Source: Candidatus Hermodarchaeota archaeon
GTDB lineage: Archaea > Asgardarchaeota > Lokiarchaeia > Sigyniarchaeales > SOKP01
Reading direction: 5' to 3'
NCBI GenBank assembly: GCA_048885535.1
Contig: JBHLLO010000023.1
Span: forward strand, 1 to 41,800
DNA: 41,800 nucleotides
Part shown: positions 5,655 through 20,721 of the stretch, one piece after another
Layout: each line of letters opens with the position of its first letter
Numbering within the stretch: the first letter of the stretch is position 1
Position numbers and translations under genes: made by a program
The notes under the pieces: generated by a model
What the model was told of the DNA's origin: nothing
Seen by the model: only the letters and a program-made list of their open reading frames with translations
The model's database searches: none

Positions 5655-6710
5655 TCATTTAAAACTCATATCTCTGCACTTCTTAGCTTTATCGAACATT
5701 TTTAATTTTTCATAACAATAAGCCAAACTTTTGCAAAAATCTAAGTTTTTAGGTTTTAATTTAAGAAGGTTTTCATACTGTATGATAGCCTTTTTATAAT
5801 CTTTTTTGATGTTACAATACATTTCTCCTAACTTCAATCTTGCTGAAATATTATCTGACTCTTTATCTAAGACCTTTTGATAATAATAAATAGCATTATC
5901 ATAGTCATTTAATGCATAGTAGCTAAATCCTAAATTCTCAAATAAAATAGGGTCGTCAGGAGTAATTTCTAATGCTTTTTTAAAACATATAACTGATTCA
6001 TTATATTTTTCTTTAAGATTATATGATAGTCCTAAATCGTTCCAAGCCTCAATAAAGAAAGGATCGATCTCAACAGCTTTTTTATAATAATCAATAGCTA
6101 AATCATAATCATTTAATTCATAAGCTATATCTGCTAATTCGCACCATAAGTCAGCGTTATCAGGTTCTAATTCTAGTGCTTTTTTATAGTAGAGAATGGC
6201 CTTATCATAATCTTTTATATCATAATAAAGTGTAGCTAAGTTATTGCAAAGTAAGGAATCATCAGGATTAATTTTTATAGCTTTTTCGTAACATTTTATT
6301 GCTTTCTTGTGTTGTTCCTGTTTTCGATAAATTAAAGCCATATTATTCCAAGCATCTGTATTGCTTGGTTCATATTCTAAAGCTTTCATATAATAATCTA
6401 ATGCTGTTTGAAAATCATTCTTATCTTCATAAGCAAATCCTAAATTATAATATATCGTAGCATCAGAAGGGTCTAATTCTAATGCTTTTTTATAATATGT
6501 AATAGCTTTATCTAATTCTTTTTTCATTGAAAAAGCTAACCCTATATTATTATAGACTTCAGAAAAATAGGGATTTATTTCTAATGCCTTTTGATAGCAC
6601 TCTATCGCCTTATCGAAATTGTTTATATTATAATAAGCATCTCCTAAATTAATCCAAGCATCAGCATCTTCAGGATCTAATTTTACAGATTGTAAATATC
6701 GTTCAATCAT
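5655..6710 (-). CDS. Tetratricopeptide repeat (TPR) protein
   Basis: About 9-10 tandem 34-aa repeats (W/Y.NLG..Y......A...Y.KALE..P); no catalytic domain. Confidence 0.92.
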   Translation of the reverse strand: MIERYLQSVKLDPEDADAWINLGDAYYNINNFDKAIECYQKALEINPYFSEVYNNIGLAFSMKKELDKAITYYKKALELDPSDATIYYNLGFAYEDKNDFQTALDYYMKALEYEPSNTDAWNNMALIYRKQEQHKKAIKCYEKAIKINPDDSLLCNNLATLYYDIKDYDKAILYYKKALELEPDNADLWCELADIAYELNDYDLAIDYYKKAVEIDPFFIEAWNDLGLSYNLKEKYNESVICFKKALEITPDDPILFENLGFSYYALNDYDNAIYYYQKVLDKESDNISARLKLGEMYCNIKKDYKKAIIQYENLLKLKPKNLDFCKSLAYCYEKLKMFDKAKKCRDMSFK

Positions 6711-6774
6711 ATTTATTGTTACTAGTTCTATATTTTTTTTATGATAGATTATTCTTATTTTTTTAGAATAATTG

Positions 6775-7812
6775 CTAAATTATTATCATTTTGTCATGTA
6801 TTTGATCAGTCAGTAAAATTCTATAGTATTCTTTCTTTTTCTTAAAAATAACTCTCTCTAATTTACCTTCAACCATAACTTTCTCTCCTTTCATAGCTTG
6901 CTCACAAAATCTTCCTCTGTAAGATGCAACTTCATTAACTTCATCTAGATTAACATCATATGTTTTAGTCTTAATCTTTGAAGTTCTTATAGGTCTTATT
7001 TTATAGGAACATGGAGTAAAAATAGCATTCAGGTCATCAACAATTTCTGCTTTAAGTTTTATTCTTCCCATATTTTTATACAAATAATCATAGTAAGTTC
7101 CTTCCCAATCATTGGGGCTTTTCAGATATCTGATAAAAAATTCAAATCCTCTAAACGTACCTTGGTGTAATTTTCGTCTCTCATATTGCAGAAACTTATC
7201 AAATGGTATATTAGAGTCTCCCACTCTCCATTTATAATGAGAAAAATATTCTTCTTGAGTATATTTCCTGCAGTAATTATGAGTTCGGAAAATATTTTTT
7301 AAATTTTCTTGGAAATTCCGACTTATATCAGTTCCATAAATGATTAGGTCAATATCAGATTGATCTCTACTTAATCCAATCATCTGAGAACCAGTTATCC
7401 CTATTGAATTATGTGGAACACCACCTTTTTCAATAAATAGCTCACATAGCTCTTTAGAACACTTCTCAAGCTGACTCATAGGGGATATAAGACATAATTC
7501 TTGATAGTAATCATGTGGAGTATAAATTTTTTTAATTTCCTCATTTTTTACTCCTTGAACTTCAACATCTAGTTGTTTGGAAAAGAATATGTAATTAGGA
7601 TATCTATTTTTCAGGAGTGAGTATCGCTCTTTCAAATCGTAGACTTTTTTATATTTTTTTCCATTTTTAATACGATCGCCATCAGAACTAGGATAAAAAC
7701 GAATAAAACATATTTTACGATCTGAAGGATGATGAATCCCTTTAACATCAAAAAAGAGATTATTATAGTGGGTTTCAATATAATCTCCTTCAATTCCTAT
7801 TGGAATTTTCAT
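6775..7812 (-). CDS. Pol-beta-superfamily nucleotidyltransferase (archaeal COG1665-like)
   Basis: GITGS...SDIDLIIYG (GS/DxD motif), N-terminal F.VKG..HP and C-terminal GE.V.V.GKLE. Confidence 0.75.
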   Translation of the reverse strand: MKIPIGIEGDYIETHYNNLFFDVKGIHHPSDRKICFIRFYPSSDGDRIKNGKKYKKVYDLKERYSLLKNRYPNYIFFSKQLDVEVQGVKNEEIKKIYTPHDYYQELCLISPMSQLEKCSKELCELFIEKGGVPHNSIGITGSQMIGLSRDQSDIDLIIYGTDISRNFQENLKNIFRTHNYCRKYTQEEYFSHYKWRVGDSNIPFDKFLQYERRKLHQGTFRGFEFFIRYLKSPNDWEGTYYDYLYKNMGRIKLKAEIVDDLNAIFTPCSYKIRPIRTSKIKTKTYDVNLDEVNEVASYRGRFCEQAMKGEKVMVEGKLERVIFKKKKEYYRILLTDQIHDKMIII

Positions 7813-7833
7813 AAATTTCCCGAAATATAATAA

Positions 7834-8916
7834 TTAATATTTTGAAGGAGTTTTTGTTTTAATTTTGTGTTTGGGAATCTCTTTAGCTTTTCTTAATTCA
7901 TTCTCAAATTCTTTTTTCTCTTTAAGCAATCTCTCTTTATCTCTTTCTAATTTTTCTCTTTCTCTTCGAATAACACTCTTTTCATTTGTTATATTTGATT
8001 TTTCCTTTTCTAATTGCTTAATGTCATTACTTAAAACTTTGAATTTATCCTCTAATTTATGGATTTTATCTTGTAATGAGAAATAATTACTTTCTGCTTT
8101 TGGGACTTTCTTATTTAATTCATTTATTCTTGCCTCTTGCTCTTGTTTCTTACGTTCTAGATCTCTTACATTTCTTTCTACCTTATCTTTAAAATTTTCC
8201 AAATCTACTTTTTTCTTTTCAATCTCACGATTCTTATCTTTCAGATCTTTCCTTTTATAACGAATTCTTTCTTTTTCATCTTTTAATTTTTGTTTTTCAT
8301 CATGAATTCGATTTTTTTCATCAAAAATTTCTCGCTTAAAATCAGTGACTTCTTTGTCTAGGTTATCTCTCTCTCTTGTTAGGGTTTTGATTTCATTTCT
8401 TAAATCCATTAATTCACTTTCTAATTTTTCAATGGTTCTTTCTAAGGCACTTTCTCTCCTTTCCATTCCAGGTATTTTAGTTTTTATCTGCTTAATACGA
8501 TCTTCTGTTCTTTCTCTTTCTTTTCTTAAATTATTCTTTTCTCTATCTAATATATCTTTTAATTTCTGTAATTCAGCTTTCTTTTCATCTAATTCTCTTT
8601 CTTTTAACTGTAGATCATTTTTATGTTGTTTTATTTCATTTCTCATTCTTTGTAATTCATTCTGTAAGCTTCTATGTTGATTTAAAAGATCCTTAACTTC
8701 AAGCTCTTTTTCTTTTCTTTTCTTTTCAAGATCTTTTATATTTTCTTTATATCCTTCAAGTTTTTCAATAATTTTTTCCCATTCAGCTTTTTCTTTTTGT
8801 AACTTTATTGTTTCTTCTTTTATTTGTCTTAATAACTTTGCATCTGGAATGATATCTACCGTTTCTTCTGGAGTTTTTTCTTTTATTTGATATTTAGGTA
8901 TTTTATTTTCTTTCAT
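7834..8916 (-). CDS. Long K/E-rich coiled-coil protein
   Basis: About 300 aa of near-continuous heptad pattern. ATG at 8916 (after AGGGA) is preferred over TTG at 8961. No Walker A motif or TM segment. Confidence 0.8.
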   Translation of the reverse strand: MKENKIPKYQIKEKTPEETVDIIPDAKLLRQIKEETIKLQKEKAEWEKIIEKLEGYKENIKDLEKKRKEKELEVKDLLNQHRSLQNELQRMRNEIKQHKNDLQLKERELDEKKAELQKLKDILDREKNNLRKERERTEDRIKQIKTKIPGMERRESALERTIEKLESELMDLRNEIKTLTRERDNLDKEVTDFKREIFDEKNRIHDEKQKLKDEKERIRYKRKDLKDKNREIEKKKVDLENFKDKVERNVRDLERKKQEQEARINELNKKVPKAESNYFSLQDKIHKLEDKFKVLSNDIKQLEKEKSNITNEKSVIRREREKLERDKERLLKEKKEFENELRKAKEIPKHKIKTKTPSKY

Positions 8917-9114
8917 TGTATCTACATACAATCCCTTCTTATTATTAAGATATAAAAACAATATTTCTAAAGTTTTCGTACCTAAAGGACAAAATATATA
9001 TTATGTTTGTTATCCTAATTTCATTTATATAATAAGAGTATTATTATTTATATAAAATATATTGAGAATAAACTTCAAAATTATCTTAATTATTAATTAT
9101 AAGGTGATAAATCT

Positions 9115-9504
9115 ATGGATTTTGATGAAGAATTTGATGAAGAGTTTGATGAAGATTTGGATGAAGATCTAGATGAAGATATAGAAGAACCTTCTATGAA
9201 AACCCCTAGTGAAGAAGTTAAATCCAAAACTCCTACTGTAAAACCAGTTGTTGAAGGAAAAAAGATTTCAGTATTCTTTCTATCCACTATTGGTCCTGGT
9301 GAGAAAAAGCAAAAACTTTTGGTTTATACAGGGAACAAAGTAGGAGATATTAAGAAAACCGTTGCGAATTTATTTGGTTTAGACCCTGCAGATTTTCATT
9401 TATCTTCTGGTGGAGTCACTATGGAAGAGGACACCGCATTAAGTGAATATCATGTAGTTGAGGGAGATGATATTTTGTTGATTCCAGCAAGTACTGCCGG
9501 TTAG
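9115..9504 (+). CDS. Ubiquitin-like modifier 1 (acidic N-terminal extension; C-terminus PASTAG)
   Basis: The C-terminal ~80 aa align by eye to ubiquitin (FHLSSGGVTMEEDTALSEYHVVEGDDILLI vs [30 protein letters not shown]). It ends in Gly-stop and has GGTGA 7 nt upstream of the ATG. Confidence 0.88.
   Translation: MDFDEEFDEEFDEDLDEDLDEDIEEPSMKTPSEEVKSKTPTVKPVVEGKKISVFFLSTIGPGEKKQKLLVYTGNKVGDIKKTVANLFGLDPADFHLSSGGVTMEEDTALSEYHVVEGDDILLIPASTAG
9121..9189 (+). repeat. 12-bp coding tandem repeat (FDEE/FDED/LDED) in the Ubl1 N-terminus
   Basis: TTTGATGAAGAA, TTTGATGAAGAG, TTTGATGAAGAT, TTGGATGAAGAT, CTAGATGAAGAT, then partial ATAGAAGAA. Confidence 0.85.
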
Positions 9505-9555
9505 AGATGAAACAATGAAGTAAGTAGAGGATCTATTCATCAATTCGTTAAAATA

Positions 9556-10350
9556 TTAATTTTTTTCTTTTCGTGTAGGAATTATAACAATCTCATCATC
9601 ATCATCTAAATTATAATCACTTATTTTCAAATTTTCCTCCAAGATTATACCTCCTGATGATATTACAAAATTACTTAAATCATAATCAAATAAAACTCCG
9701 ATCTTCTCTTTAATTTCACTAACGAAGTTAGACATTTCAACAATTATTATTTTTGTTTTTTCACCTGGTTCTATTAAGGATCTCACATAAACACGTATTT
9801 TCTCTTGCATTTCAATATTAATTTTAGGTGGAGTGAAGATAATTTGTTCTATTTCTTTGTCTTTATTTATTATCATATCTTCAATTAATTGTGTTCTTTC
9901 CCGGGGAGAAAAGTATAATAACTCTCTTAAGAAAAATATTTTATCCATTTTTGAAAGATCTAAGAGATTTATTTTCTCTAATTCTTCAGAGTTAAAAACT
10001 GAAAATATATAGTCATCCATTGTTGGTATATTTTTATATGATTCATCTGAATTTGCATATGTATCTATTAATGGCATAGCGTCAAAATAATCCTCAACAA
10101 GCTCATTTCTATATTTCTTTAACGATTTTTTTTTCGACATAAATTTAGGTTTCTTTATTTTTTTACTTGGTATAGATTCAGATTGCGTTATTATATAAAA
10201 AGTGGAAGTAGATATTACAGCAACACTACCAATGGTAAAAAATAGGTAAAATGGAAAATTATCTATTTTTAATATGAATAGGATTACATAGATTAATATA
10301 AAAGTAATGTAAAGAGTAATAATACTTAATACTCTACTTTTTCTTTTCAT
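9556..10350 (-). CDS. Two-TM membrane protein with C-terminal non-conjugatable ubiquitin-like domain
   Basis: Basic N-terminus followed by two hydrophobic helices. The C-terminal domain (VRSLIEPGEKTK...IKEKIGVLF...FVISSGGIILEENLKISDYNLDDDDEIVIIP) is homologous to the neighbouring Ubls but ends TRKEKN. Confidence 0.85.
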   Translation of the reverse strand: MKRKSRVLSIITLYITFILIYVILFILKIDNFPFYLFFTIGSVAVISTSTFYIITQSESIPSKKIKKPKFMSKKKSLKKYRNELVEDYFDAMPLIDTYANSDESYKNIPTMDDYIFSVFNSEELEKINLLDLSKMDKIFFLRELLYFSPRERTQLIEDMIINKDKEIEQIIFTPPKINIEMQEKIRVYVRSLIEPGEKTKIIIVEMSNFVSEIKEKIGVLFDYDLSNFVISSGGIILEENLKISDYNLDDDDEIVIIPTRKEKN

Positions 10351-10424
10351 GGTTTTTTTAATTTTTTTCTAATTTTCTAATTTATCATTTAAAATATAAA
10401 TTCAATTGGTATAAATTTGAAATT

Positions 10425-11102
10425 TTAGTTTGAATTATGTGTTATCAATTTAATGATATTATCGTAGTTCTGTAAATCTAATTTAAATAAAACCCTCTTG
10501 TTGTCTTTTTCAGTTTTTATTATTTTTAAATTAATTAGTATTTTTAGATATTTTTTGATTGTATTATAATTCTTTTTTAATTCCTTGGCAATTCTAGTTA
10601 ATTTTAATTTTTTATTTTCAATCTTCATCAATTCAATTATTTCTTTTACAATGTCTTGATTAAGATAATAATAAGGTTCATCTAATTCTGGATCTGAACC
10701 ATATTCAAAAACCATCCTTTGATTGTCTATTTTTCTTGATCTGGTAAATTGGAATTTTTCTAAGCACGATAAATGCCAAAGGGCTTGATTACTTCCAATA
10801 TTTATAGCCTTCATAATTTCATTAATATTCGAGGGATTCTTCTTGACATAATTGTATATCTCGTTTCTTATTGGATGTTCAATAATATTATTTTTCATTA
10901 ATTTAGTTCCAGGAATTAGTATTCGTTTTTTGATAAGATTTTTAATGATTTTCTCAATCATATTTCTATTTAAGTAAGGGTAAGCTTTCGATCTATTGTT
11001 AATAAAAGTAATAATATCCTCCAACGAAAAGAAGGGTTTCTTATTTAAATATTCCTTTACTAACTCAAGAACAACAGAGTTAACTTTATCTGGAGAACTC
11101 AT
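10425..11102 (-). CDS. Winged-helix (ArsR/COG3398-like, tandem HTH) transcription regulator
   Basis: R.EIYNYVK.NP..INEI.......NQALWHL..LEKF, plus a second HTH (LTRIAKELKKNYNTIKKYLKIL); divergent from the Ubl2-E1 operon. Confidence 0.75.
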   Translation of the reverse strand: MSSPDKVNSVVLELVKEYLNKKPFFSLEDIITFINNRSKAYPYLNRNMIEKIIKNLIKKRILIPGTKLMKNNIIEHPIRNEIYNYVKKNPSNINEIMKAINIGSNQALWHLSCLEKFQFTRSRKIDNQRMVFEYGSDPELDEPYYYLNQDIVKEIIELMKIENKKLKLTRIAKELKKNYNTIKKYLKILINLKIIKTEKDNKRVLFKLDLQNYDNIIKLITHNSN

Positions 11103-11360
11103 AAGGTTTTATATTTACGCTGTTTACAATTTTGATTTTTACTTCCAAATCTTCTCTCTAAAACGATATTTTCTAGCTTATATATATTAGATATTCATTC
11201 AATTTATAGATATATCTTAGAAAGATAGAAACATTAATCTTATTTTTTTATTGAAAATGATAAAAAATTCAAAATCATTCCAATTGGTTTTATAATATCT
11301 TTTTTATGCAATTTTATTAAGTTTATTCAAAAAAACTTAAAAAAAAAAGAAGTGATATAA

Positions 11361-11687
11361 ATGAGTTTTAAAGATGATTTTGATGAAGATTTGGAACCTG
11401 TTAAATCTAAAACACCAGTATCTAAAACCCCTGCTAAAGGAAAAAAATTGACTTTATATTTCATGTCAACCATCGGACCCGGTGAAAAGAAGGAAAAGTT
11501 AACTGTGAATGACGCTAATCAGGTAAATGATATCAAACAAACTTTAGGAAATCTATTCGGACTCGATCCTGATGAATTTCATTTATCATCTGGTGGTGTT
11601 ACCATGGATGAGGACAGTCAATTAGGAGACTATAACCTAAGTGACGGTGACGATATTCTTTTAATCCCAGCTAGTACTGCCGGGTAA
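11361..11687 (+). CDS. Ubiquitin-like modifier 2 (C-terminus PASTAG)
   Basis: Paralogue of 9115..9504 (56/82 identical over the domain, counted by hand); first gene of the E1-E2-JAMM-RING run. Confidence 0.9.
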   Translation: MSFKDDFDEDLEPVKSKTPVSKTPAKGKKLTLYFMSTIGPGEKKEKLTVNDANQVNDIKQTLGNLFGLDPDEFHLSSGGVTMDEDSQLGDYNLSDGDDILLIPASTAG

Positions 11688-11721
11688 ATTTTTAAATTTT
11701 TCTTCATAAATTATAAATTAA

Positions 11722-11742
11722 GGGCAATAAGCCCCTTTTTTT
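11722..11742 (+). terminator. Short GC hairpin plus T7 tract between Ubl2 and E1
   Basis: GGGC-AATAA-GCCC followed by C and TTTTTTT. Confidence 0.45.
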
Positions 11743-11767
11743 CTTTTATTTAATAAAGGTGATAATA

Positions 11768-12991
11768 ATGGATAAAAAATCAGATTTTTTTGACAAAGCG
11801 TTATCAAGCGAGGAGAGAAATTTATATGATCGGCAATTTCGCCTAGAAGGATGGTCCCAGAGATTAGTAAAAAACTCGAGAATATTAATTGTAGGTGTGG
11901 GAGGATTAGGATGTGAAATTGCTAAGAACTTAGCAATGTTAGGTGTAGGTCACTTAGATCTTGTAGATTTAGATATCATTGAGTATTCTAATTTAAACAG
12001 ACAAGTTCTTTTTGCGGGGGCAAAGATCGGAACACCTAAAGCAATTGCAGCCACTAAAAAATTAATAGAAATAAATCCTAATATTAATGTTAAGGGATAC
12101 CACAGTTCGCTTGAGCGATTAGATCCCATGTTATATCAAATGGCTGATGTTGTGATTGGAGGTCTTGATTCAATGAATGCACGCTTAAATTTAAATGCAC
12201 ATTGTATAAGATTTAGAAAACCATTAGTTGATGGTGGTGTATCTGGTTATCATGGTCATATTTATACAATTTTTCCGTATCAGAATGCCTGCTATGAATG
12301 TAATCCATTACCTATAGGAGAAACTGATGAGATGGCGGCGTGTACGGTGGTTGGAATACCTCGTAAAAGAATTCATTGTGTTTTTAAAGGAGATATGGCA
12401 TTTAGAGAAAAATTCGATCGAGATCCAAATCCAAAAGACATAAATGAAATAAGGTTTATTCAAAAGGTTACCAATGAATTAGTAATTAAACACAGTTTCT
12501 TACCTGAATATACTGAAGATGATATTGTGAAAATTCTTGATAGACACGATCCAGGGATAATAACTATAAATGCAGTTATTTCTGCTTTACAATCTCATGA
12601 AGCGGTAAAGATTCTTCATTGGAATAAAGGACATAAAGGATTAGGAGAACCAATTAAAGATTATGTGATATTTAATGCAATGACAATGAAATTTTATCAC
12701 ATCGAGAAACCGAGGAACACTGAATGTTCTCAATGTGGAAGGCAAGTTAGACGTGTAGCTATAAAAATGAATTCGCAATCACCTTGCATTAAAATAATTA
12801 AAACATTACAGAAAAATGGATATAATTTGGAACCTGAGTTTGAACCCGTATTAACATTATTGGATTTTAATGATATTAAAGTAATTGACTTAGAAAAGAA
12901 TCCAATTGAAAATGGTTTAAGAAATCATGAATTTATAACGGTTGCAGGGTTTAAAGGTGGAGAAATTTATGTAACTTTAAAATTAAAATAA
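11768..12991 (+). CDS. Ubiquitin-like activating enzyme E1 (ThiF/UBA family)
   Basis: YDRQ, GVGGLG, DLDIIEYSNLNRQ, Zn motifs CYEC and CSQC, and catalytic-Cys motif ACTVVGIPRKRIHC. ATG at 11768 follows GGTGA-N5. Confidence 0.92.
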   Translation: MDKKSDFFDKALSSEERNLYDRQFRLEGWSQRLVKNSRILIVGVGGLGCEIAKNLAMLGVGHLDLVDLDIIEYSNLNRQVLFAGAKIGTPKAIAATKKLIEINPNINVKGYHSSLERLDPMLYQMADVVIGGLDSMNARLNLNAHCIRFRKPLVDGGVSGYHGHIYTIFPYQNACYECNPLPIGETDEMAACTVVGIPRKRIHCVFKGDMAFREKFDRDPNPKDINEIRFIQKVTNELVIKHSFLPEYTEDDIVKILDRHDPGIITINAVISALQSHEAVKILHWNKGHKGLGEPIKDYVIFNAMTMKFYHIEKPRNTECSQCGRQVRRVAIKMNSQSPCIKIIKTLQKNGYNLEPEFEPVLTLLDFNDIKVIDLEKNPIENGLRNHEFITVAGFKGGEIYVTLKLK

Positions 12992-13093
12992 GGTTCTAAT
13001 CAAAAAATATTTTTTATATCATTTAATGAAATAGATACTTATAAAAGAGTAAATTTTTAATATAAAATTAAACAAAGTAAAGGGATTAAGAAA

Positions 13094-13621
13094 ATGAGTA
13101 TAAGAAGTAGCCGTATTTCCCGAGATTTTGCAGGATTAAAAAAAATGGTTAAAGAGGGGAATCTTGTTCAGTTAGTTCCATTTAACCCTAAAAAGAAAAG
13201 TATTGATCATTTAGCTTTAACAATCAAAGGTCCTAAAGGCACTGCCTATTCAGGTGGCCTTTTTAAACTGGAAATGAAATTCCCTGCTCAATATCCAAAA
13301 CAACCACCTTTCGTAAGAATTCATACTCCTATTTGGCATCCTAATTTTTGGCCAAAACCTAGTGAATACAAAGGTCAGAGAAATATTTGTCTAGCTTTAG
13401 TAGATCCCACATTAGTTGGTCAAAAGGGTGGATGGAGTCCCTCAAAAACAGCTGTTACGGTTGTTCAGGCCATAATTGCCATGTTAAACACACGTGGTAA
13501 ATATGTAAATCCAACCGACGTTTTTAATAAAAAAGCGGCTATAGAAATGATGAAAGATCCTAAATTTTTTGAAAAAAAAGTTAAAAATTTAGTTAAAAAA
13601 TATGCTAGAAGTAAATGGTGA
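13094..13621 (+). CDS. Ubiquitin-conjugating enzyme E2 (UBC fold)
   Basis: IKGPKGTAYSGGLFKL..FP.QYP..PP, TPIWHPN, ICL (catalytic Cys99), WSP and NP.D.FN..AA. Confidence 0.93.
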   Translation: MSIRSSRISRDFAGLKKMVKEGNLVQLVPFNPKKKSIDHLALTIKGPKGTAYSGGLFKLEMKFPAQYPKQPPFVRIHTPIWHPNFWPKPSEYKGQRNICLALVDPTLVGQKGGWSPSKTAVTVVQAIIAMLNTRGKYVNPTDVFNKKAAIEMMKDPKFFEKKVKNLVKKYARSKW

Positions 13622-13626
13622 TATTT

Positions 13627-14445
13627 ATGGACCCATCAAATTCGAATGAAGAATCAATTAAAGAAGAAATTAAAAAAAAAATTAAGGAGATAATTAAGAA
13701 AGAGTTATTAAATGAAATCTATGAAGAGTTAAAGTCAGAAGAAAACGAACTCGTAAACGAGATTAGCACTATGATTTCTCAAAGAGAACCCGAAAAGCAA
13801 TCGATAAAACATACTGCTAACCAAGCTTCTATTCAAGCCTCAATAACTAAAGCATCCCAAAAAGTTATTGCTGTAGATGAAATAGAAAAAGAAGTATATA
13901 TTTCAGTCAAGGCAATTCTAAAGGTAGCAAGTCATGCTCTTAAATATGCCAATTCAAAAATCCCAAGAAAGAATTGGGTAGAAGTAATAGGATTACTTGC
14001 AGGTAAATTAGACAATCACAGTAATATATTACATATTGAAGATTACTATCCTATGGGACATGGAACAGCTGTTTATGCTGAAATAAAAGATTATAAAAAT
14101 TATGCAAGGGCTTTTCGAGATATTAAAAAAGAGAAATTATTTATTTGTGGATGGGCACATAGTCATCCCTCTTATGGGTGTTTTATGAGTAATGAGGATA
14201 TTGGCACTCAATCAAGGTATCAAACGCTCTGGGATAAAGCTGTTGCCCTTGTTATTGATCCTTATCTTATTGATGGAACATCAGCAGGATTTGAGATTTA
14301 TCGTGCAAATCTGAAAACAAAGGCCTGGTATCCTTTAGTGTATGGTATTAAAGGAACATTGGATATTAAGATGCTTCCTGAAATCTTAGAATTTATGAAT
14401 CCAATCATTCAAGGAAAACCAGCATATTTAGAATATGATGAATAA
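13627..14445 (+). CDS. JAMM/MPN+ metallo-isopeptidase (Rpn11/CSN5-like)
   Basis: EVIGLL plus GWAHSHPSYGCFMSNEDIGTQ and ALVIDP; ATG at 13627 follows GGTGA-N5; ~90-aa charged helical N-terminal extension. Confidence 0.92.
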   Translation: MDPSNSNEESIKEEIKKKIKEIIKKELLNEIYEELKSEENELVNEISTMISQREPEKQSIKHTANQASIQASITKASQKVIAVDEIEKEVYISVKAILKVASHALKYANSKIPRKNWVEVIGLLAGKLDNHSNILHIEDYYPMGHGTAVYAEIKDYKNYARAFRDIKKEKLFICGWAHSHPSYGCFMSNEDIGTQSRYQTLWDKAVALVIDPYLIDGTSAGFEIYRANLKTKAWYPLVYGIKGTLDIKMLPEILEFMNPIIQGKPAYLEYDE

Positions 14446-14477
14446 TAATTTGCGTTATAATTGGTGATAATCAAACT

Positions 14478-15608
14478 GTGCTTAAAACTAAGGGTTTAGC
14501 AATAATATTTATTCTATTCTTAATAATTGGCATAATACATGGTTTTATTATCACTTTTTCATTAAATATCTTCTTTACTTGGCCGCTAATTGGCTTATGG
14601 GTTATATTTACCCTTAAAATTCTAGAAAATGTAAAACGCCATCGAGAATTTAATTCTCCTTACAATACAGCCTTTTTTGTGGTAATTCCATTGTTTATTG
14701 GCATCTTTTACTCAATTTGGGGCTATTTTACTGGTATCTTAGGTCAAAACTTAATAGAGGGTTCAAGTTTATATTTTAGTTGGTGGAGCATTATTTTTGG
14801 ATTTCCATTTGTACTATACGGATCTTATTCACTTTATCGTTGTTTTAAGAAATATAATGTAATTTATTTTGGTACAAAATCAATAAATGCGAGAAGATTA
14901 GGTTATATCTTAGCTTTCATAGTTGTTCTTTTTATTATGATATATTGGATAGCTTTTTATTCGGTTAATGTTTTTTATGATTCTCCCCTAACCCCGCTTC
15001 ATTTTTCTTTAAACCTTAATCTTTTAATATTACTTATTACAACCTTATTAATACTAATTATTTTTGGATTTGTTGGCTCGAAACAATCCTTACCAACATT
15101 AACTCGTGAATATATCACACAACGTACGAGAAGATTGAATTCATTAACTTCCCCATCTACTTTAAATTCATCTAGAAGGCGAAATACATCATCCAGACCT
15201 AATCCCTCAACTAGAACTACTACACGTACGACTATAAGAAGAACACCAACTACCGTTAGAGAAACAACTAGAACTAAGACAAAAACGAGTACTCAAACTA
15301 AAAGAGTTAAAGCTCATGATTTTTCGAGATATAAACCAAAAGCATCATATCTCTCAGTAGAAGATTTTAAATGTATTTTTTGTTTTAAATTACCAAAACT
15401 TCCTGATGATAGAGGGAGGGGGGTAGTTATCTGTCCAAAATGTAGATATCCTGCACATGCAGATGAATTTAGAGATTGGATGCAAACATCCAATCTCTGT
15501 TCAAGATGTAGTGCTCCCATTTCATCTTCATATAGAAGAAACCCTAGAATAATTAGTGTAAAGAATTATTTGATGATCTATTCACATTTTCTAAAAAAGA
15601 AAAGCTAA
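14478..15608 (+). CDS. Multi-pass membrane protein with C-terminal RING-variant finger (putative E3 ligase)
   Basis: About 6 hydrophobic helices, an S/T/R-rich linker, then C-x2-C-x16-C-x2-C-x4-H-x2-E-x3-W-x6-C-x2-C; last gene of the Ubl operon. Confidence 0.8.
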   Translation: MLKTKGLAIIFILFLIIGIIHGFIITFSLNIFFTWPLIGLWVIFTLKILENVKRHREFNSPYNTAFFVVIPLFIGIFYSIWGYFTGILGQNLIEGSSLYFSWWSIIFGFPFVLYGSYSLYRCFKKYNVIYFGTKSINARRLGYILAFIVVLFIMIYWIAFYSVNVFYDSPLTPLHFSLNLNLLILLITTLLILIIFGFVGSKQSLPTLTREYITQRTRRLNSLTSPSTLNSSRRRNTSSRPNPSTRTTTRTTIRRTPTTVRETTRTKTKTSTQTKRVKAHDFSRYKPKASYLSVEDFKCIFCFKLPKLPDDRGRGVVICPKCRYPAHADEFRDWMQTSNLCSRCSAPISSSYRRNPRIISVKNYLMIYSHFLKKKS

Positions 15609-15630
15609 CTCTTTAATTATTTTAAATGAT

Positions 15631-16590
15631 TCAATTTAAGATTTCTAATTCTTTCTTTAAATCTCCTATGGTAGTTTTTAATTCCGCATAAACATTATGA
15701 GGATGAATTGATTCATAACTTTCTATTTTAAAGATTATTTTAAACTTTTCATCTAGATTGGGGAAATCTCTTAAAATGAAGTTTTTTGCCATTTCCCTTA
15801 TTACATCTTCTGCGAATAAAGGTTTCAGATGAGCACTTCTAACAAGTTTCGCCTCTTCTGGTCTTTTTAAAACAGATTGCATCTTTCCACTCATTGAATC
15901 TTCTATAATATCGATAATGTCTAATACATCAATTTTATGATTATTTAAATCTTTAATTTGAACTATAATAGTTCCAGTCGATCTTTGATTATGGGAACTA
16001 AAGGGCAAGATATTAAGAAGTTTTTGAATGACTTCAGGTGGGAGATTGATGTCATTTCTATTTTTGATGATCTGTTCAGCGTATTCTTGACTCATTTCTT
16101 TAGCACATGGGCAAACCGTCATTCCAACAGCACTGGCCCCAATATAATAGTTAAAGTCGATTTCTTCTTTATCATTCTTCCTAGCTTTTACATAGGAAAT
16201 TATATCATAAGCTTTTTGAATTGTTCTTTGTTCGTTGTCTTTCACTTGGACAATTATTTTTCCTTCTAATTTTACCTCAACTTTCTCTGTATAAGGATGT
16301 CTTTCTAATAATTGTCGAGCAATTCTATCTCCTACAACTTCAACAGAAGGTGTAGGCTTAAATATTACTTCGTTTATAATCTCCTCAATAGTCTCTGAGG
16401 TACGGGACATATGAATACCTCTTTTATGACTAGGCAATGAAATCAATGCTGAGATTTTAGGATAAAATGAGAATTTTTTATTTTCTTGAATAATATCAAC
16501 TTTCTTTTCTACTCCTACAATTCCAACCTTATCAATAGGGATGTTTACCCTCGAAATTGAGTCTTGCAGATCTTTTTTAAATTGATTAAT
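15631..16590 (-). CDS. mptA: GTP cyclohydrolase MptA (FolE2 family), probable ATT start
   Basis: RGIHMSR, GMTVCPCA, SHNQR, LKRPEE, PLFAEDVIR and ESIHPHN. The frame stays open 48 codons beyond the TTG at 16446 and contains the conserved DLQD...IDKVGI.GV, back to ATT at 16590. Confidence 0.88.
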   Translation of the reverse strand: MNQFKKDLQDSISRVNIPIDKVGIVGVEKKVDIIQENKKFSFYPKISALISLPSHKRGIHMSRTSETIEEIINEVIFKPTPSVEVVGDRIARQLLERHPYTEKVEVKLEGKIIVQVKDNEQRTIQKAYDIISYVKARKNDKEEIDFNYYIGASAVGMTVCPCAKEMSQEYAEQIIKNRNDINLPPEVIQKLLNILPFSSHNQRSTGTIIVQIKDLNNHKIDVLDIIDIIEDSMSGKMQSVLKRPEEAKLVRSAHLKPLFAEDVIREMAKNFILRDFPNLDEKFKIIFKIESYESIHPHNVYAELKTTIGDLKKELEILN

Positions 16591-16683
16591 TTAAAATCAC
16601 CGAAATTTATTTGCTTCTACCAATTCTAATAATTAATATTTAATTAAATTATTTCTTGATAAAAAGTAAAACTTTCCTTACTT

Positions 16684-17847
16684 ATGAGTGATGAAGGTAT
16701 ATTCTGTGATTATGGTCTAATCGGTGATAATTTAGAACTTAAAAAAAATATAAAGATAAAGTTTGATGAATCTGGGAACTTAAAAGAGATTTCATATAGC
16801 AATATTGAGGACATATTAGAATTTCCAGATTATAAGTCGAACTTATTGTTAATACCTGGCTTAATTAATTCTCACATTCATATAGGAGATAGTTTTGCAA
16901 AGGAACAAGGGTTTAATAAGCCTTTAAAAGAGGTTGTTGCACCTCCTAATGGTATTAAACATCAAATGTTAAGTAAAGTTTCAAAAGAAGTAATTGTAAA
17001 GGGAATCAAGAAAGCAATAGATGAAATGGTATCAAACGGGATTACATCTTTTATTGACTTTAGGGAAGGTGGAATCCAAGGTCTTAATATATTATCTGAG
17101 ACTCTGACAACTTATTCTGATATCAATTATCTTGCTTTTGGAAGATATGTCGAAGAGGGAGAAATTAAAAAATTATTCGAAGTAGCAGAAGGAATTGGTT
17201 TACCTAGTTATGCTAACATATCTCCTGAACTTAAAGAAAAATTAATGAAATATAAAGGGGAGTTTGAAAAATTAATTGCATGTCATGTAGCTGAACTTAA
17301 AAGAGAGAATGATCTTATCAATCAAATTTTTCAGGATGGGATTATTGATATTTTTATTCATGGAACTCATTTTAGTGAAAGTGACCTAAAATTATTAAAA
17401 GAAAAGGAAAAATCCTTAATACTATGTCCGCGTTGTAATGGTTATTTTGGAGTAGGATTTCCTCCCGTTAACAAAGTATTTGAATTAAAAGTACCTGTGG
17501 CGATTGGAACAGATAATGTAATGGCTAATAGTCCCGATCTATTCGAAGAGTTGCGATATTTATATCGAATCTTGAGAATATTAAACAATAACGCATATAT
17601 ATCTGCATTAGATTTGTTGAAAATGGTTACAATTAATGCAGCAAAAATTTTTAATATTCAAAATCATGTAGGATCCATTATTAAGGGAAAGCGCGCAGAT
17701 TTTTTCATAATTGATTTAAATGATCCAAATTATTATGTATCGAATTTAGATATTGAGAGGTTCTATACTTTGATCCTAGGAAGAACTAAGACATCTAATA
17801 TTAAGAAAACATATATTAGGGGTAAACTTGTACATGAAAAATGTTAA
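16684..17847 (+). CDS. Metal-dependent amidohydrolase / deaminase
   Basis: PGLINSHIHIGD, HVAE, IHGTH, LCPR.N, GTDN and G..ADF. Confidence 0.85.
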   Translation: MSDEGIFCDYGLIGDNLELKKNIKIKFDESGNLKEISYSNIEDILEFPDYKSNLLLIPGLINSHIHIGDSFAKEQGFNKPLKEVVAPPNGIKHQMLSKVSKEVIVKGIKKAIDEMVSNGITSFIDFREGGIQGLNILSETLTTYSDINYLAFGRYVEEGEIKKLFEVAEGIGLPSYANISPELKEKLMKYKGEFEKLIACHVAELKRENDLINQIFQDGIIDIFIHGTHFSESDLKLLKEKEKSLILCPRCNGYFGVGFPPVNKVFELKVPVAIGTDNVMANSPDLFEELRYLYRILRILNNNAYISALDLLKMVTINAAKIFNIQNHVGSIIKGKRADFFIIDLNDPNYYVSNLDIERFYTLILGRTKTSNIKKTYIRGKLVHEKC

Positions 17848-18499
17848 AAAACCTTATATTATGTTAAGTACAGCAATGACGATCGATGGGAAGATTTCCT
17901 CGAAAAACGGGGATTCTGAGATATCGGATGAGGAGGATTGGAAAGAAGTTCATAAAATTAGGACTCAAGTAGATGCAATCATGGTTGGAAAAAACACGAT
18001 ACTTCGAAACAACCCTAAACTTCATATTAAATTCTATCAACATACAGGTTATTATCGTATTGTGATAGATAGTAATTTATCTATACCAATCGATTCACAA
18101 ATAATAAATTTTAAGCCAGAAATGTATCCTACTATAATATGTACTACAGAAAATGTTACCGAGGATAAGATTAACCGCTTTAGGACGAAAAATGTTAAAA
18201 TTATCAAAAGTGGAACAGGAAATCAAGTAGATATTAAATTATTAATGGAAAAATTATATAATTTTGGAATTAGATCAATTCTTTTGGAAGGAGGAGGAAA
18301 TCTAAATTGGAGCTTCCTTAAAGAAGATTTAGTGGATGAGATAAGAATATTTGTAGCGCCGTGGATTGTTGGAGGAAAAAATGCAATCTCATTCGTTGAG
18401 GGTGATGGATTCAATAAAATGATTGAAGCTCCTAGGTTTAGATTAATTAAAGTTAGACAAAGAGAGAATTATGTTATTCTAAAATATAAGAGAAAGTAA
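17834..18499 (+). CDS. 2,5-diamino-6-ribosylamino-4(3H)-pyrimidinone 5'-phosphate reductase (ArfC/Rib7, RibD C-terminal type)
   Basis: AMTIDGKI, VHKIR...DAIMVG..T...NPKL, LLEGGG.LN and VAP.IVGG; ATG at 17834. Confidence 0.88.
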   Translation: MKNVKKPYIMLSTAMTIDGKISSKNGDSEISDEEDWKEVHKIRTQVDAIMVGKNTILRNNPKLHIKFYQHTGYYRIVIDSNLSIPIDSQIINFKPEMYPTIICTTENVTEDKINRFRTKNVKIIKSGTGNQVDIKLLMEKLYNFGIRSILLEGGGNLNWSFLKEDLVDEIRIFVAPWIVGGKNAISFVEGDGFNKMIEAPRFRLIKVRQRENYVILKYKRK

Positions 18500-18500
18500 A

Positions 18501-19622
18501 ATGAGTGAAGATACAAATATCTATGAAAATTTGTCTATTCAGAAGATTAAAGAATCGGTAAAAGAGATTAAATCATCTTTACCTAAGGAGAATCGAAATA
18601 TTATTACTTTCTCAAGAAATTTCACTTTATCTTTATCTAACTATTGCCAAAATCAATGCAAATATTGTTTTTATAACTATAAGGTAGCTAAATTAAATGG
18701 TTTAAGTAACACTACCCTTCTGGAAAATGAGCAGATGATTAGCTTGGTTCAGAAAGCAGTCGAATTAAACTGCCGGGAAGCATTATTAATGTCTGGAGAA
18801 AGACCAGATAGCTTCAATGAGGTTATTGAAGAATTGAGAAATAGAAAGTATGACGATTATATACAATTCGTTATAGATATTTGCTCATATCTTCTAAATT
18901 ATAATTTGTTGCCTCACACTAATATAGGGGTACTTACATTTGGCGAATTGCAGAGATTGAAGAATTCAAATGCTAGTATGGGTCTGATGCTTGAAAGTAG
19001 TAATAAAGAACTTTTTAAGAAGGGGGCTGTCCATGAAATATCACCTGGGAAGTTACCAGAGAAAAGAATTGAACATATAAAGAATGCTGGTAAGTTGAAA
19101 ATTCCTTTTACTACTGGTTTATTGTTGGGTATTGGTGAAAGCTTCAAAGACAGAATTAATGACTTACTCTTAATAAAAAATTTACATGATAAATATGGAC
19201 ATATTCAAGAAGTTATAATACAGAATTTTGTGGAAAAAGAGGGGATTCAATATCATCCAAAGAAACCGATATCCATTAAAGAGACTTTAAAAACAGCTGG
19301 TATAGCAAAATTAATATTTGGAAATGAAATTGCGATACAAATTCCACCTAATTTAATTCAAGGGTATGAAAAAAATGCAATTGAACTGGGAATCGATGAT
19401 TTTGGAGGGATATCTCCATTTACAATTGATTATATTAATCCAGATCACCCATGGCCCCAAATTGATAAATTGAAAGCAATTTGTAACTCTTTTGGATACG
19501 AATTAAAAGAAAGGCTTCCTATTTATTCGAAATATATACAAAAATCTGAATTCTGCCCAGTAAGTATTAAAAAAATTATAGATAATATAAAGTTAGATGT
19601 TGCAAATTTACAATCAAATTAA
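18501..19622 (+). CDS. cofG: FO synthase subunit CofG (radical SAM)
   Basis: TFSRN, CQNQCKYC, EAL.MSGE, LPHTN.G, SMGLMLE, IPFTTGLL.GIGE, HIQEVIIQNF, QIPPNL and DFGGISP.T.D.INP..PWP. Confidence 0.93.
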   Translation: MSEDTNIYENLSIQKIKESVKEIKSSLPKENRNIITFSRNFTLSLSNYCQNQCKYCFYNYKVAKLNGLSNTTLLENEQMISLVQKAVELNCREALLMSGERPDSFNEVIEELRNRKYDDYIQFVIDICSYLLNYNLLPHTNIGVLTFGELQRLKNSNASMGLMLESSNKELFKKGAVHEISPGKLPEKRIEHIKNAGKLKIPFTTGLLLGIGESFKDRINDLLLIKNLHDKYGHIQEVIIQNFVEKEGIQYHPKKPISIKETLKTAGIAKLIFGNEIAIQIPPNLIQGYEKNAIELGIDDFGGISPFTIDYINPDHPWPQIDKLKAICNSFGYELKERLPIYSKYIQKSEFCPVSIKKIIDNIKLDVANLQSN

Positions 19623-20721
19623 ACCTAATATCAAATCGATATTAGAGAAAGGTCTTAATTCTGAGAGGATCTCATCACAAGAAGCTTTAGAACTTCTAAA
19701 GGTGACTGGAAAAGAGTTCATTGCACTTCAACATACGGCAGACACAATTTGTTTTCAGAAAAAGCAAAATGTTGTCACATTTGTAGTAAATCGAAACATA
19801 AATTTTACAAATATTTGTTATCAAGGATGTAAATTTTGCACATTTAGCGTTCCTATCACAAGTGAAAAAGGGTTTTTGCTAAATATTGAGGAAATAGAAG
19901 AAAAAGTTAAAGAAGCAAATAGCAATAATTGTTCTGAAGTTTGTATTCAAGGAGGTCTACATCCAAAATTACAATTCGAATATTATTTAGAAATATTAAA
20001 AGCTGTAAAAAAAATAAATCCAAAAATCCATATACATGCATTCTCCCCTCAAGAAATATATTATATGTCAAAAATATCTGGTAGTTCGATTGAAGATACT
20101 TTAAAAACATTACAAGAAAATGGATTAGATTCTATTCCTGGTACTGCAGCCGAGATTTTGGTTGACAGAATAAGAAATATCATATGTCCAAACAAGTTAA
20201 GTACTTCTAAATGGATTGAAATTATATCAACAGCACATAAATTAGGAATCCCAACAACTTCGACTATAATGTATGGACACATTGAAGATTTAGATGATAG
20301 GATCACCCATTTAGAGATTTTAAGAGATATTCAACAAAAAACTCAAGGTTTTACTGAATTTGTTCCTCTACCTTTTGTAAAAGAAAACCCTCTGTTGTCA
20401 CGACTCAGAGATTTTCCATTAAAACCAAGCTATGGAATGGCAGATTTGAAATTATTTTGTGTGGCAAGGATATATTTTAATAATTATATTGATAATATCC
20501 AATGTTCATGGGTAAAATTAGGACCAAAATTTGCACAAGTGTCTCTTAATTATGGTGTAAATGATTTTTCAGGAACTTTAATGGAAGAGAACATATCTAA
20601 GAGTGCTGGTGCTGAATTTGGAGAATATTTATCTCCTGAAGAAATCATTAAAATTATTAAAAATGCTGGTAAAATACCTGCTCAAAGAGATACATTATAT
20701 AACATTGTGAATTATTTCTAA
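19597..20721 (+). CDS. cofH: FO synthase subunit CofH (radical SAM)
   Basis: VTFVVNRNINFTNICYQGCKFC, EVCIQGG, HAFSPQE, PGTAAEIL, TIMYGH, FTEFVPLPF, NIQ.SWVKLG and GTLMEENI; follows cofG. Confidence 0.93.
   Translation: MLQIYNQIKPNIKSILEKGLNSERISSQEALELLKVTGKEFIALQHTADTICFQKKQNVVTFVVNRNINFTNICYQGCKFCTFSVPITSEKGFLLNIEEIEEKVKEANSNNCSEVCIQGGLHPKLQFEYYLEILKAVKKINPKIHIHAFSPQEIYYMSKISGSSIEDTLKTLQENGLDSIPGTAAEILVDRIRNIICPNKLSTSKWIEIISTAHKLGIPTTSTIMYGHIEDLDDRITHLEILRDIQQKTQGFTEFVPLPFVKENPLLSRLRDFPLKPSYGMADLKLFCVARIYFNNYIDNIQCSWVKLGPKFAQVSLNYGVNDFSGTLMEENISKSAGAEFGEYLSPEEIIKIIKNAGKIPAQRDTLYNIVNYF

Follow-up and report, generated by a model that had tools for sequence, protein, structure and literature searches.

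A predicted six-pass membrane protein with a RING-variant domain in a ubiquitin-like conjugation operon of Asgard archaea

Introduction

Operons encoding ubiquitin together with an E1, an E2, a RING protein and a JAMM isopeptidase are established in Aigarchaeota and Asgard archaea, for which the accessible portions of the published accounts describe a small soluble RING protein and a ubiquitin with a di-glycine (di-Gly) end (PMC5654768; bioRxiv 10.1101/2023.07.25.550441). Here we ask what kind of conjugation system is encoded by a locus of this type in which the RING-like protein is predicted to cross the membrane six times and the ubiquitin-like proteins (Ubls) end differently. The locus occupies positions 9115-15608 of a 41,800-nucleotide stretch of DNA (contig JBHLLO010000023.1 of assembly GCA_048885535.1, positions 1 to 41,800), hereafter the window. 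An earlier note made from the letters of this stretch had likened the locus to endoplasmic-reticulum-associated degradation (ERAD), with a membrane RING ligase working beside a membrane-anchored Ubl. Our analysis points to a different emphasis: the locus probably encodes a dedicated, membrane-localised Ubl conjugation system of Asgard archaea that is separate from the organism's di-Gly ubiquitin, with tagging probably taking place at the cell membrane because the candidate ligase is a six-pass membrane protein.

Results

A complete cascade with intact catalytic motifs

The source genome (3.09 Mb in 112 contigs, 92% complete, G+C about 30%, with the window as contig C23) is that of an Asgard archaeon of the Loki lineage, and the window DNA is also present in sediment and mangrove metagenome DNA runs; the sequencing runs listed as containing it are DNA only, with no RNA run among them. 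All eight open reading frames (ORFs) of 9115-15608 are present in the ORF list at the coordinates of Table 1. They encode two free Ubls (Ubl1 and Ubl2), a Ubl protein with two transmembrane (TM) helices (TM-Ubl), a double winged helix-turn-helix (wHTH) protein, an E1, an E2, a JAMM isopeptidase and the candidate membrane ligase, which we call TM-RING. Five of these, in the order Ubl2, E1, E2, JAMM and TM-RING, form a single co-oriented run on the forward strand (11361-15608).

The catalytic motifs of the three enzymes are intact. The E1 retains its G46-x-G-G-x-G nucleotide loop and two C-x2-C pairs, and its closest solved relatives are SAE2, UBA1 and UBA3; the E2 retains H82-P-N and C99 and is related to many solved UBC-type E2s (ubiquitin E2s at E 8e-15 to 1e-13, Ubc9 at 3e-11); and the JAMM protein retains E123 and H182-x-H-x7-S-x2-D, with Rpn11 as its nearest solved relative. 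Coordinates, Pfam families and motifs thus bear out the earlier description of a complete Ubl-E1-E2-JAMM-RING locus of an Asgard archaeon, and Pfam and the ORF list do the same for the two free Ubls, the divergent wHTH gene and the two-TM protein bearing the same Ubl fold. A UFM1-like system was also considered and was dropped, as the E2 is a UQ_con protein with H-P-N, the modifier matches Pfam ubiquitin and solved ubiquitins, and a Pfam scan at E ≤ 1 returned no match to the Ufm1 family.

TM-RING combines a predicted six-helix membrane domain with a RING-variant zinc domain

Hydropathy analysis of TM-RING finds five clear helices and one weaker, aromatic helix, and its lysines and arginines are confined to the N-terminus, to loops 47-65 and 120-140 and to the C-terminal 176 residues, the other loops having none at all. 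This distribution agrees with the positive-inside rule and suggests six TM helices with both termini inside, such that the linker and the zinc domain would be cytoplasmic; the earlier note's view of the RING protein as polytopic is in keeping with these six predicted helices.

The C-terminal domain carries seven Cys/His ligands in a RING/PHD-like spacing, with ligand position 6 taken by an invariant glutamate (E330). Twelve aligned orthologues share the invariant pattern C-x2-C-x14-16-C-P-x-C-x4-H-x2-E-F-x2-W-x6-C-S-R-C, the ligand pattern including the glutamate is kept in 21/21 orthologues from many families, and the isoleucine after the first ligand (C1), Trp334 and Arg343 are invariant in the aligned orthologues. 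A profile of the zinc domain, searched against 1.84 billion representative proteins, returned 120 matches at E ≤ 1e-3, about 100 of which have the same architecture. The weakest matches (E 5e-9 to 1e-3) are other proteins; 10 of these 19 were scanned, and in 9 of the 10 the matched region also matches zf-RING_2, in six cases with a score over the Pfam cut-off. These weak-end RING proteins have H-x2-H where the TM-RING family has H-x2-E, so that E330 aligns with the second histidine of Pfam-positive archaeal RINGs. Moreover, an hhalign comparison of the TM-RING domain with 10 zf-RING_2-type proteins gave a probability of 98.5% (E 1.5e-15, 54 columns), in register ligand by ligand and with the F-x2-W helix also aligned. 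Because the profile matches reach zf-RING_2 proteins, the hhalign probability is of this order and the ligand pattern is so consistently kept, we assign the domain as a RING variant with glutamate at ligand 6, an assignment upheld at the profile level only. TM-RING itself has no significant match to any curated RING model. The earlier identification of the protein as a RING protein is therefore sustained by profile-level homology and by the E2-RING model described below, and not by a Pfam call in the window protein.

In sequence, the membrane domain resembles nothing that we could name. Its profile, searched against all solved sequences, gave a best match at E 0.63, to SV2A, and none to Hrd1, Doa10 or TRC8, so that the comparison with these bundles proposed in the earlier note brings out no likeness in sequence. 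In the ESM Atlas, the first match of TM-RING is its own cluster (0.97) and the next are bacterial clusters (0.76-0.81) in which 13-24% of members carry Prok-RING, which we treat as a lead; a search with the TM part alone gave no usable match and no named cluster. A collection of 5.8 billion proteins contains 368 relatives of the family at E ≤ 1e-3; the best 120 of these are without any precomputed Pfam domain and, where named, are called 'hypothetical protein'. The public relatives are metagenome-assembled genomes labelled Promethearchaeota or Promethearchaeia, Loki_b31 and Loki_b32 among them.

The modelled zinc domain meets the canonical RING-binding face of the E2

We modelled the operon's E2 with the RING domain and two zinc ions in three runs alongside three controls, using our own alignments and ligand. 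This complex, whose prediction the earlier note had proposed, reached an ipSAE of 0.64 (runs 0.67, 0.58 and 0.64), while the best of the three controls reached 0.00; contacts agreed by at least 97% between runs, and the partner pLDDT was 87. In calibration, the ipSAE mark was reached by 58/80 solved complexes and by 2/110 mismatched pairs. On the E2 side the modelled interface consists of helix 1, loop 4 (68-69) and loop 7 (108-112 and 115-117, including S-P-S), and on the RING side of the residues after C1 (I300-K304), W334 and S342-R343. The predicted contact thus corresponds to the canonical RING-binding face of the E2. Solved structures include many E2-RING pairs, and we therefore read the result as likeness and not as binding. 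In the accessible part of the work on the Caldiarchaeum cascade, the equivalent loop-4/loop-7 and Ile/Trp/Arg positions matter by mutation (Hennell James et al. 2017, PMC5654768).

TM-RING is kept beside the cascade in many Asgard families

TM-RING was matched in 33 of 41 relatives, including 22/24 other genomes of its genus, and its profile was matched in 167 of the 301 genomes sampled from the phylum. Families f1 (58/68) and f2 (6/7) have full-length matches, as do genomes of f6, f14 and f20, and in f9 (27/28), f26 (20/21), f18 (8/11) and f32 (2/2) the matches are divergent but equal in size; among the sampled genomes no match was found in f11 (0/76), f7, f21 or f24. In all 24 loci that were fetched, TM-RING lies directly after the JAMM gene (12/12 in its own order and 12/12 in other classes), and the E2, E1 and Ubl genes stand beside it wherever the contig extends far enough, across many families of the phylum. 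The gene order is permuted in f9, to E2, JAMM, TM-RING, TM paralogue, Ubl and E1. Clustering of the ORFs of 22 loci recovered E1, E2, JAMM and TM-RING in 22/22 and a Ubl in 21/22; these loci were chosen through TM-RING, and the counts therefore describe linkage and not prevalence.

Directly downstream of TM-RING, seven loci of f9, f18, f26 and f32 carry a paralogue of its membrane domain that lacks the RING, a multi-pass protein of about 195 residues that aligns with the TM-RING membrane domain over 180 columns (hhalign 96.9%, E 1.3e-10). Its presence points to an oligomeric or hetero-oligomeric membrane domain.

Four genomes without TM-RING also lack the coiled-coil protein described below and have only an E2 match at 41-44% identity, which we take to be the paralogue of the second cascade; they belong to two genera and are not independent of one another. 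In addition, a single-contig 4.4-Mb genome of the same order holds a stretch (G032:C1:594198-594329) in which only some 40-45 residues of the RING region match, with a TAA inside the 69-residue frame, and which may be the remnant of a lost TM-RING gene.

The set of Ubl, E1, E2 and JAMM genes resembles bacterial Bil operons, and the E1 matches the PADLOC 'E1-E2' models (best E 7.4e-19), as would be expected of an antiviral or conflict system of the Bil or CBASS-Cap2 kind that turns Ubl conjugation against invading elements. We hold this to be very improbable. The PADLOC matches cover the generic adenylation domain only, with the E2 at 0.0081, and PADLOC gave no match for the JAMM protein, the Ubl, TM-RING or TM-Ubl; furthermore, the operon is single-copy and syntenic in most genomes of many families and is flanked by housekeeping genes, unlike patchy defence islands.

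The modifier is a ubiquitin paralogue without a di-glycine end

Both Ubl1 and Ubl2 end in ...STAG, with no extra residues in the source genome, and all 17 aligned Ubls share an invariant L-I-P-x-S-T-A-G end and no C-terminal di-glycine. The nearest solved proteins are ubiquitins (single ubiquitin at about 1e-6). Because one to four extra residues follow STAG in several other lineages, its glycine appears to be the mature end, and JAMM would process the extended forms at that point. Every modifier also has a disordered N-terminal tail with an acidic Phe/Leu tract. Behind this tract, 16/17 aligned tails have one or two copies of an [IVM]-x-x-K-[TV]-P motif, usually S-K-T-P (the SKTP motif).

Elsewhere in the genome there are two di-Gly Ubls (C1:59578-59898 and C18:15208-15522, both on the reverse strand), which end in ...Q-A-G-G followed by one or about 20 residues, and contig C15 holds a second E2 and, 3 kb away, a second E1 (Table 1) that probably serve them. 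Judged by its gene content, the organism would run at least two Ubl cascades, with the STAG modifier as a separate ubiquitin paralogue, and the window locus would then not be the di-Gly ubiquitin system of the published cases. That the modifier is a separate, non-di-Gly ubiquitin paralogue is a point the earlier note overlooked. Metabolic genes and a gene for a coiled-coil protein, but no ESCRT genes, flank the di-Gly Ubl genes on C1 and C18.

A variation on the modifier is seen in family f4, where the second Ubl forms the C-terminal end of a vWA protein of 583-585 residues with an SKTP linker, a STAG-type Ubl and a short extension (L016:2213-3964, forward strand; L017:9691-11448, reverse strand). 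By its sequence, this vWA-Ubl protein could itself be conjugated through its own C-terminus.

A coiled-coil neighbour shares the SKTP motif with the modifier

Ten of the 22 clustered loci, from families f1, f2, f3, f4, f6 and f20, have a divergently transcribed gene for a coiled-coil protein next to the operon. All ten homologues have an [IVM]-x-x-K-[TV]-P motif within their first 40 residues and the same motif or a close variant within their last 20, and among the 4663 ORFs of at least 60 residues in the source genome only Ubl2 and the coiled-coil protein contain two or more copies of [ST]KTP. We infer that the motif either accepts the modifier or serves for docking, and that the coiled-coil protein is a principal target. 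By analogy with SUMO tails, the SKTP motif in the tail of the modifier would permit chains.

Prediction of substrates across the genome from single SKTP motifs was dropped, the count matching chance. One further candidate was rejected, namely genome G157 as a case in which the coiled-coil gene is kept without the operon; the contig in question is 2646 bp long and also holds the start of a Ubl gene. In an f26 genome the operon is closely followed by a gene (L035:5205-6065, reverse strand) for a Lys/Pro-rich, apparently disordered protein of 286 residues with several K-[TI]-P motifs resembling those in the Ubl tails.

TM-Ubl and the wHTH gene form a late accessory module

TM-Ubl is a membrane-anchored Ubl, as the earlier note had supposed: it matches Pfam ubiquitin, hydropathy and charge predict an N-in two-TM hairpin, and its Ubl ends in ...IPTRKEKN, without a terminal glycine; the Ubl lacks this glycine in all five copies seen. 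Its Ubl domain is about 30-45% identical to the free Ubl genes by tblastn. The full-length protein was found (E ≤ 1e-49) in 86/151 genomes of the class, all of them in family f1 (genera g1, g12, g16 and g17), and outside f1 only its Ubl domain matches, through free modifiers. The proposal that both membrane genes are conserved with the cascade, set out beforehand as a test, thus holds for TM-RING, in its linkage and its spread alike, and for TM-Ubl within this one family.

The wHTH gene always adjoins TM-Ubl, and its product is presumed to regulate the module. In the window lineage the module lies between the ancestral Ubl and the E1, and in genus g16 TM-Ubl, wHTH and a Ubl are set apart from the main operon and are followed by a soluble 222-residue paralogue that consists of linker and RING. 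From this distribution, TM-Ubl and wHTH look like a separable, late, family-level accessory module that travels with this RING type and is not part of the core. The linkers of the soluble g16 paralogue and of the window TM-RING (...R-R-T-P...) repeat R-T-P, the arginine version of K-T-P; that they act as a pseudo-substrate is pure speculation.

This evidence also bears on the ERAD-like reading, by which the TM domain would recognise damaged or orphan membrane proteins for tagging, extraction by Cdc48 and degradation by the proteasome, with TM-Ubl in the part of HERP/Usa1 or TMUB1. The architecture is analogous in that a polytopic ligase would carry its RING at a cytoplasmic C-terminus, the RING-less paralogue in seven loci suggests a hetero-oligomeric membrane complex, and f1 supplies a membrane-anchored, non-conjugatable Ubl that in g16 stands beside a RING paralogue of its own. 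Against this, the 22 clustered neighbourhoods have no recurring gene for Cdc48, the proteasome, Derlin or a rhomboid, there is none among the scanned ORFs of window positions 5655-22580, and the TM domain has no sequence likeness to a solved protein, Hrd1 included, or to a named Atlas cluster. Most lineages that keep the operon lack TM-Ubl, the additional partner that is conserved is soluble, a coiled-coil protein sharing a motif with the modifier, and the modifier is not di-Gly ubiquitin. We therefore consider ERAD-like quality control unlikely and retain it as an analogy.

Is the membrane protein a ligase?

Several observations weigh against a membrane-localised conjugation system with TM-RING as its ligase. 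The fourth TM helix lies under the hydropathy threshold. The best Pfam match of TM-RING is only zf-RING_16 (E 0.066, with 13.3 bits where the cut-off is 27.4), and in 12 members scanned the matches to Prok-RING_1 (11/12), zf-RING_16 (10/12) and zf-RING_2 (5/12) are all under their cut-offs, with zinc-ribbon, UBZ and Cas12f-TNB families scoring similarly to the RING models. In a search of the zinc-domain profile against solved sequences, eS27 zinc ribbons come first (E 0.049), with RING ligases at E 0.47 and 2.6. One canonical zinc ligand is replaced by glutamate, which makes a two-zinc cross-brace conjectural; the E2-RING model, moreover, may owe its score to memory of solved E2-RING pairs. 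On the side of the candidate substrate, the coiled-coil gene is present in only 10 of the 22 clustered loci and in no locus of f9, f14, f18, f26 or f32, and the genome as a whole shows no excess of [ST]KTP (22 copies, with 17.9 expected). The SKTP lysine may be an acceptor, or the motif may be a docking site or a Thr-Pro phosphosite.

Taken at face value, the sub-threshold RING matches, the equal scores of other zinc families, the leading eS27 ribbons and the count of only seven Cys/His ligands would fit a membrane protein that is no ligase. Its C-terminal domain would be a zinc ribbon or Ubl-binding module and the protein a substrate, receptor or anchor for the cascade, with E1 and E2 needing no E3, as is the case in SAMP- or Bil-type systems. 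The hhalign alignment to Pfam-positive RINGs speaks against this, with ligands and F-x2-W helix in register, as do the zf-RING_2 calls in nine of the ten weak-end matches scanned, the invariance of the Ile after C1, Trp334 and Arg343, and the model, which places the domain on the canonical RING face of the E2 with all controls at 0.00. We accordingly judge a non-ligase role improbable, and continue with TM-RING as the candidate ligase of a membrane-localised conjugation system.

Features of the region

The coordinates of the operon, its neighbours and its paralogues are collected in Table 1.

Table 1. Features of the window and of related loci. Window positions are given without prefix; other positions carry the label of their locus.
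Feature	Coordinates	Strand	Evidence or remarks
All-TPR protein, 351 aa	5655-6710	-	TPR_1, E 7e-87; upstream of coiled-coil gene
345-aa protein	6775-7812	-	no Pfam or NCBIfam match
Coiled-coil protein, 375 aa, SKTP-type motifs at both ends	7834-8961	-	Pfam coiled-coil matches below threshold only
Ubl1, 129 aa; acidic N-terminal tract, SKTP motifs, ...STAG end	9115-9504	+	Pfam ubiquitin, E 1.6e-4, 21.8 bits, under cut-off
TM-Ubl, 264 aa; 2-TM hairpin, Lys-rich linker, helical middle, C-terminal Ubl	9556-10350	-	Pfam ubiquitin, E 1e-7, residues 189-255
Double winged-helix protein, 225 aa	10425-11102	-	HTH_5, E 1.1e-5; ArsR/SdpR-type matches
Ubl2, 108 aa; two SKTP motifs, ...STAG end	11361-11687	+	Pfam ubiquitin, E 8e-7, 29.2 bits vs cut-off 25.4
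Terminator-like hairpin followed by T-run, between Ubl2 and E1	11720-11737	+	consensus scan
E1, 410 aa, ThiF-type adenylation domain	11759-12991	+	ThiF, E 1.1e-58
E2, 175 aa, UBC fold	13094-13621	+	UQ_con, E 1.9e-25
JAMM/MPN+ isopeptidase, 276 aa	13615-14445	+	JAB, E 2.5e-13; start codon overlaps E2 end
TM-RING, 376 aa; six predicted TM helices (aa 1-200), Ser/Thr/Arg-rich linker, C-terminal RING-variant domain (aa 275-376)	14478-15608	+	
Zinc-ligand motif C299-x2-C302-x16-C319-x2-C322-x4-H327-x2-E330-x10-C341-x2-C344	15372-15509	+	alignments
RING-less TM paralogue	L034:10741-11328	+	
RING-less TM paralogue	L035:6180-6800	-	
RING-less TM paralogue	L036:4644-5219	-	
RING-less TM paralogue	L041:8921-9466	-	
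RING-less TM paralogue	L042:3615-4202	-	
RING-less TM paralogue	L044:3168-3743	-	
RING-less TM paralogue	L045:9241-9834	-	
Soluble RING paralogue, 222 aa; Thr/Arg-rich linker and RING	L129:8634-9302 (G233, genus g16); also L130	+	only in g16
Second E2, 169 aa	contig C15, L003:9947-10456	+	UQ_con, E 1e-24
Second E1, 524 aa	contig C15, L003:13452-15026	-	3 kb from second E2

The hairpin between Ubl2 and E1 is a possible attenuator; the terminator consensus scan of the region gave 6 sites where 2.5 were expected. Promoter-like sites in the region were no commoner than in shuffles, the consensus used being bacterial.

Beyond the coiled-coil gene, the 345-residue protein is kept beside that gene in same-genus loci, with a partial copy on the G157 contig, and by eye contains a nucleotidyltransferase-like G-S...D-x-D stretch; the all-TPR protein has relatives in 6 of the 22 clustered loci. 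Just downstream of TM-RING (15631-20721) lie genes for a type I GTP cyclohydrolase FolE2, an amidohydrolase, a RibD_C protein and two radical-SAM proteins, one with a CofH C-terminal region. This cluster looks like F420 or riboflavin-related biosynthesis and unrelated to the Ubl operon.

Six other zf-RING_2 matches occur in the genome, three of them above the cut-off (C25:19277-19408, C13:6882-7016, C33:10765-10893, C22:13261-13392, C81:9429-9557 and C6:58247-58423). They point to a wider RING repertoire, and TM-RING is not among them.

Discussion

A model for conjugation at the membrane

Gene content, intact motifs, conservation, RING homology of the zinc domain and the modelled E2 contact together suggest a course of events in which we infer what each enzyme does, how the proteins lie in the membrane and which substrates are modified. 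The modifier would be a ubiquitin paralogue with a disordered acidic/SKTP N-terminal tail and an L-I-P-x-S-T-A-G end, mature as encoded in the source genome; in other lineages JAMM would remove one to four extra residues. The ThiF-type E1 would adenylate the terminal glycine and hand the modifier to Cys99 of the E2, and the charged E2 would dock on the cytoplasmic RING of the six-pass protein, leading to conjugation at the inner face of the membrane. The likeliest acceptors would be SKTP-type lysines, both those near the two termini of the coiled-coil protein and those in the tail of the modifier, where they would give chains, and JAMM would reverse the mark. In the source family, the added module of TM-Ubl, wHTH and a second modifier gene would supply a membrane-tethered Ubl that probably recruits or tunes the same machinery.

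Relation to known systems

As far as the accessible portions of the published work describe them, the operons of Caldiarchaeum subterraneum and of Asgard archaea, among them the Helarchaeial cascade (bioRxiv 10.1101/2023.07.25.550441), share with this one a clustered set of Ubl modifier, ThiF-type E1, UBC E2, JAMM and RING genes with intact catalytic motifs, and modifier pro-forms that are trimmed at the C-terminus, as would happen here in other lineages. The E2 loop-4/loop-7 and RING Ile/Trp surfaces used in Caldiarchaeum are those predicted to meet here (PMC5654768). Also in common, the archaeal RINGs have Cys where the eukaryotic RING-H2 has His4, and the same source notes an extra 'C3B' cysteine. 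Against the background of these published portions, the present system differs in that its ligase is a six-TM protein of 376 residues, not a small soluble one, with glutamate as ligand 6; its modifier ends in A-G, not G-G, and has an acidic/SKTP tail; and it coexists with di-Gly Ubls and a second E1/E2, with no ESCRT genes nearby.

The comparisons with eukaryotes are ones of architecture. Hrd1, gp78, TRC8/RNF139, RNF121 and Doa10/MARCH6 are polytopic RING ligases of the endoplasmic reticulum and endomembranes, and TM-RING is like them in joining a multi-pass domain to a cytoplasmic RING that would bring a UBC E2 to the membrane. It is unlike them in that no homology of the TM-domain sequence was found, its RING lacks one Cys/His ligand, and no linkage to Cdc48 or the proteasome was found. 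HERP/Usa1 and TMUB1 are membrane adaptors with UBL domains; TM-Ubl resembles them, again by architecture only, in having a TM hairpin and a non-conjugatable Ubl tied to a membrane RING ligase, whereas its Ubl is C-terminal and is a copy of the locus's own modifier, and the protein is restricted to one archaeal family. SUMO, finally, is conjugated by Ubc9 at a psi-K-x-E consensus, and SUMO-2/3 forms chains through its N-terminal tail. A short lysine motif in the modifier's disordered N-tail and in candidate substrates recalls this arrangement, as a working analogy only; the motif here is [IVM]-x-x-K-[TV]-P, and Ubc9 is no better than ubiquitin E2s as a solved relative.

The operon type is thus known, and the new points would be the membrane RING, the STAG modifier, the SKTP motif and the TM-Ubl module. 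In the portions of the literature available to our search, no Asgard ubiquitin operon is described with a polytopic membrane RING, a ...STAG modifier, an SKTP motif or a TM-Ubl module, with the qualification that the family may be listed in the asCOG tables or among clusters I-III of supplementary Fig. 1 in PMC5654768.

Implications

A wider interpretation can be put forward tentatively, and we think it less likely to be right than wrong: that Asgard archaea as a group have a second, membrane-embedded ubiquitylation system, in which a six-pass RING ligase, in some classes with its RING-less paralogue, places a private non-di-Gly modifier on SKTP lysines of a membrane-proximal coiled-coil scaffold and of the modifier's own tail. 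Such a system would be a prokaryotic forerunner of endomembrane RING ligases (ERAD, MARCH and related) and a case of SUMO-like consensus-site conjugation outside eukaryotes.

For experiment, the locus offers a compact and testable system of five small genes: the RING domain is soluble and about 100 residues long, the modifier is encoded in mature form, and there is a candidate substrate with a defined motif. Naming the TM-RING family would also improve the annotation of many Asgard genomes.

Asgard ubiquitin operons are a main line of evidence for an archaeal origin of eukaryotic protein tagging, and in eukaryotes ERAD, receptor down-regulation and organelle quality control all depend on membrane-localised tagging. 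A membrane-embedded E3 across much of the Asgard phylum would bear on the origin of membrane-associated ubiquitylation: if the reading given here is true, a membrane ligase has been kept with its E1, E2 and JAMM across Asgard families, and membrane-localised ubiquitylation predates eukaryotes.

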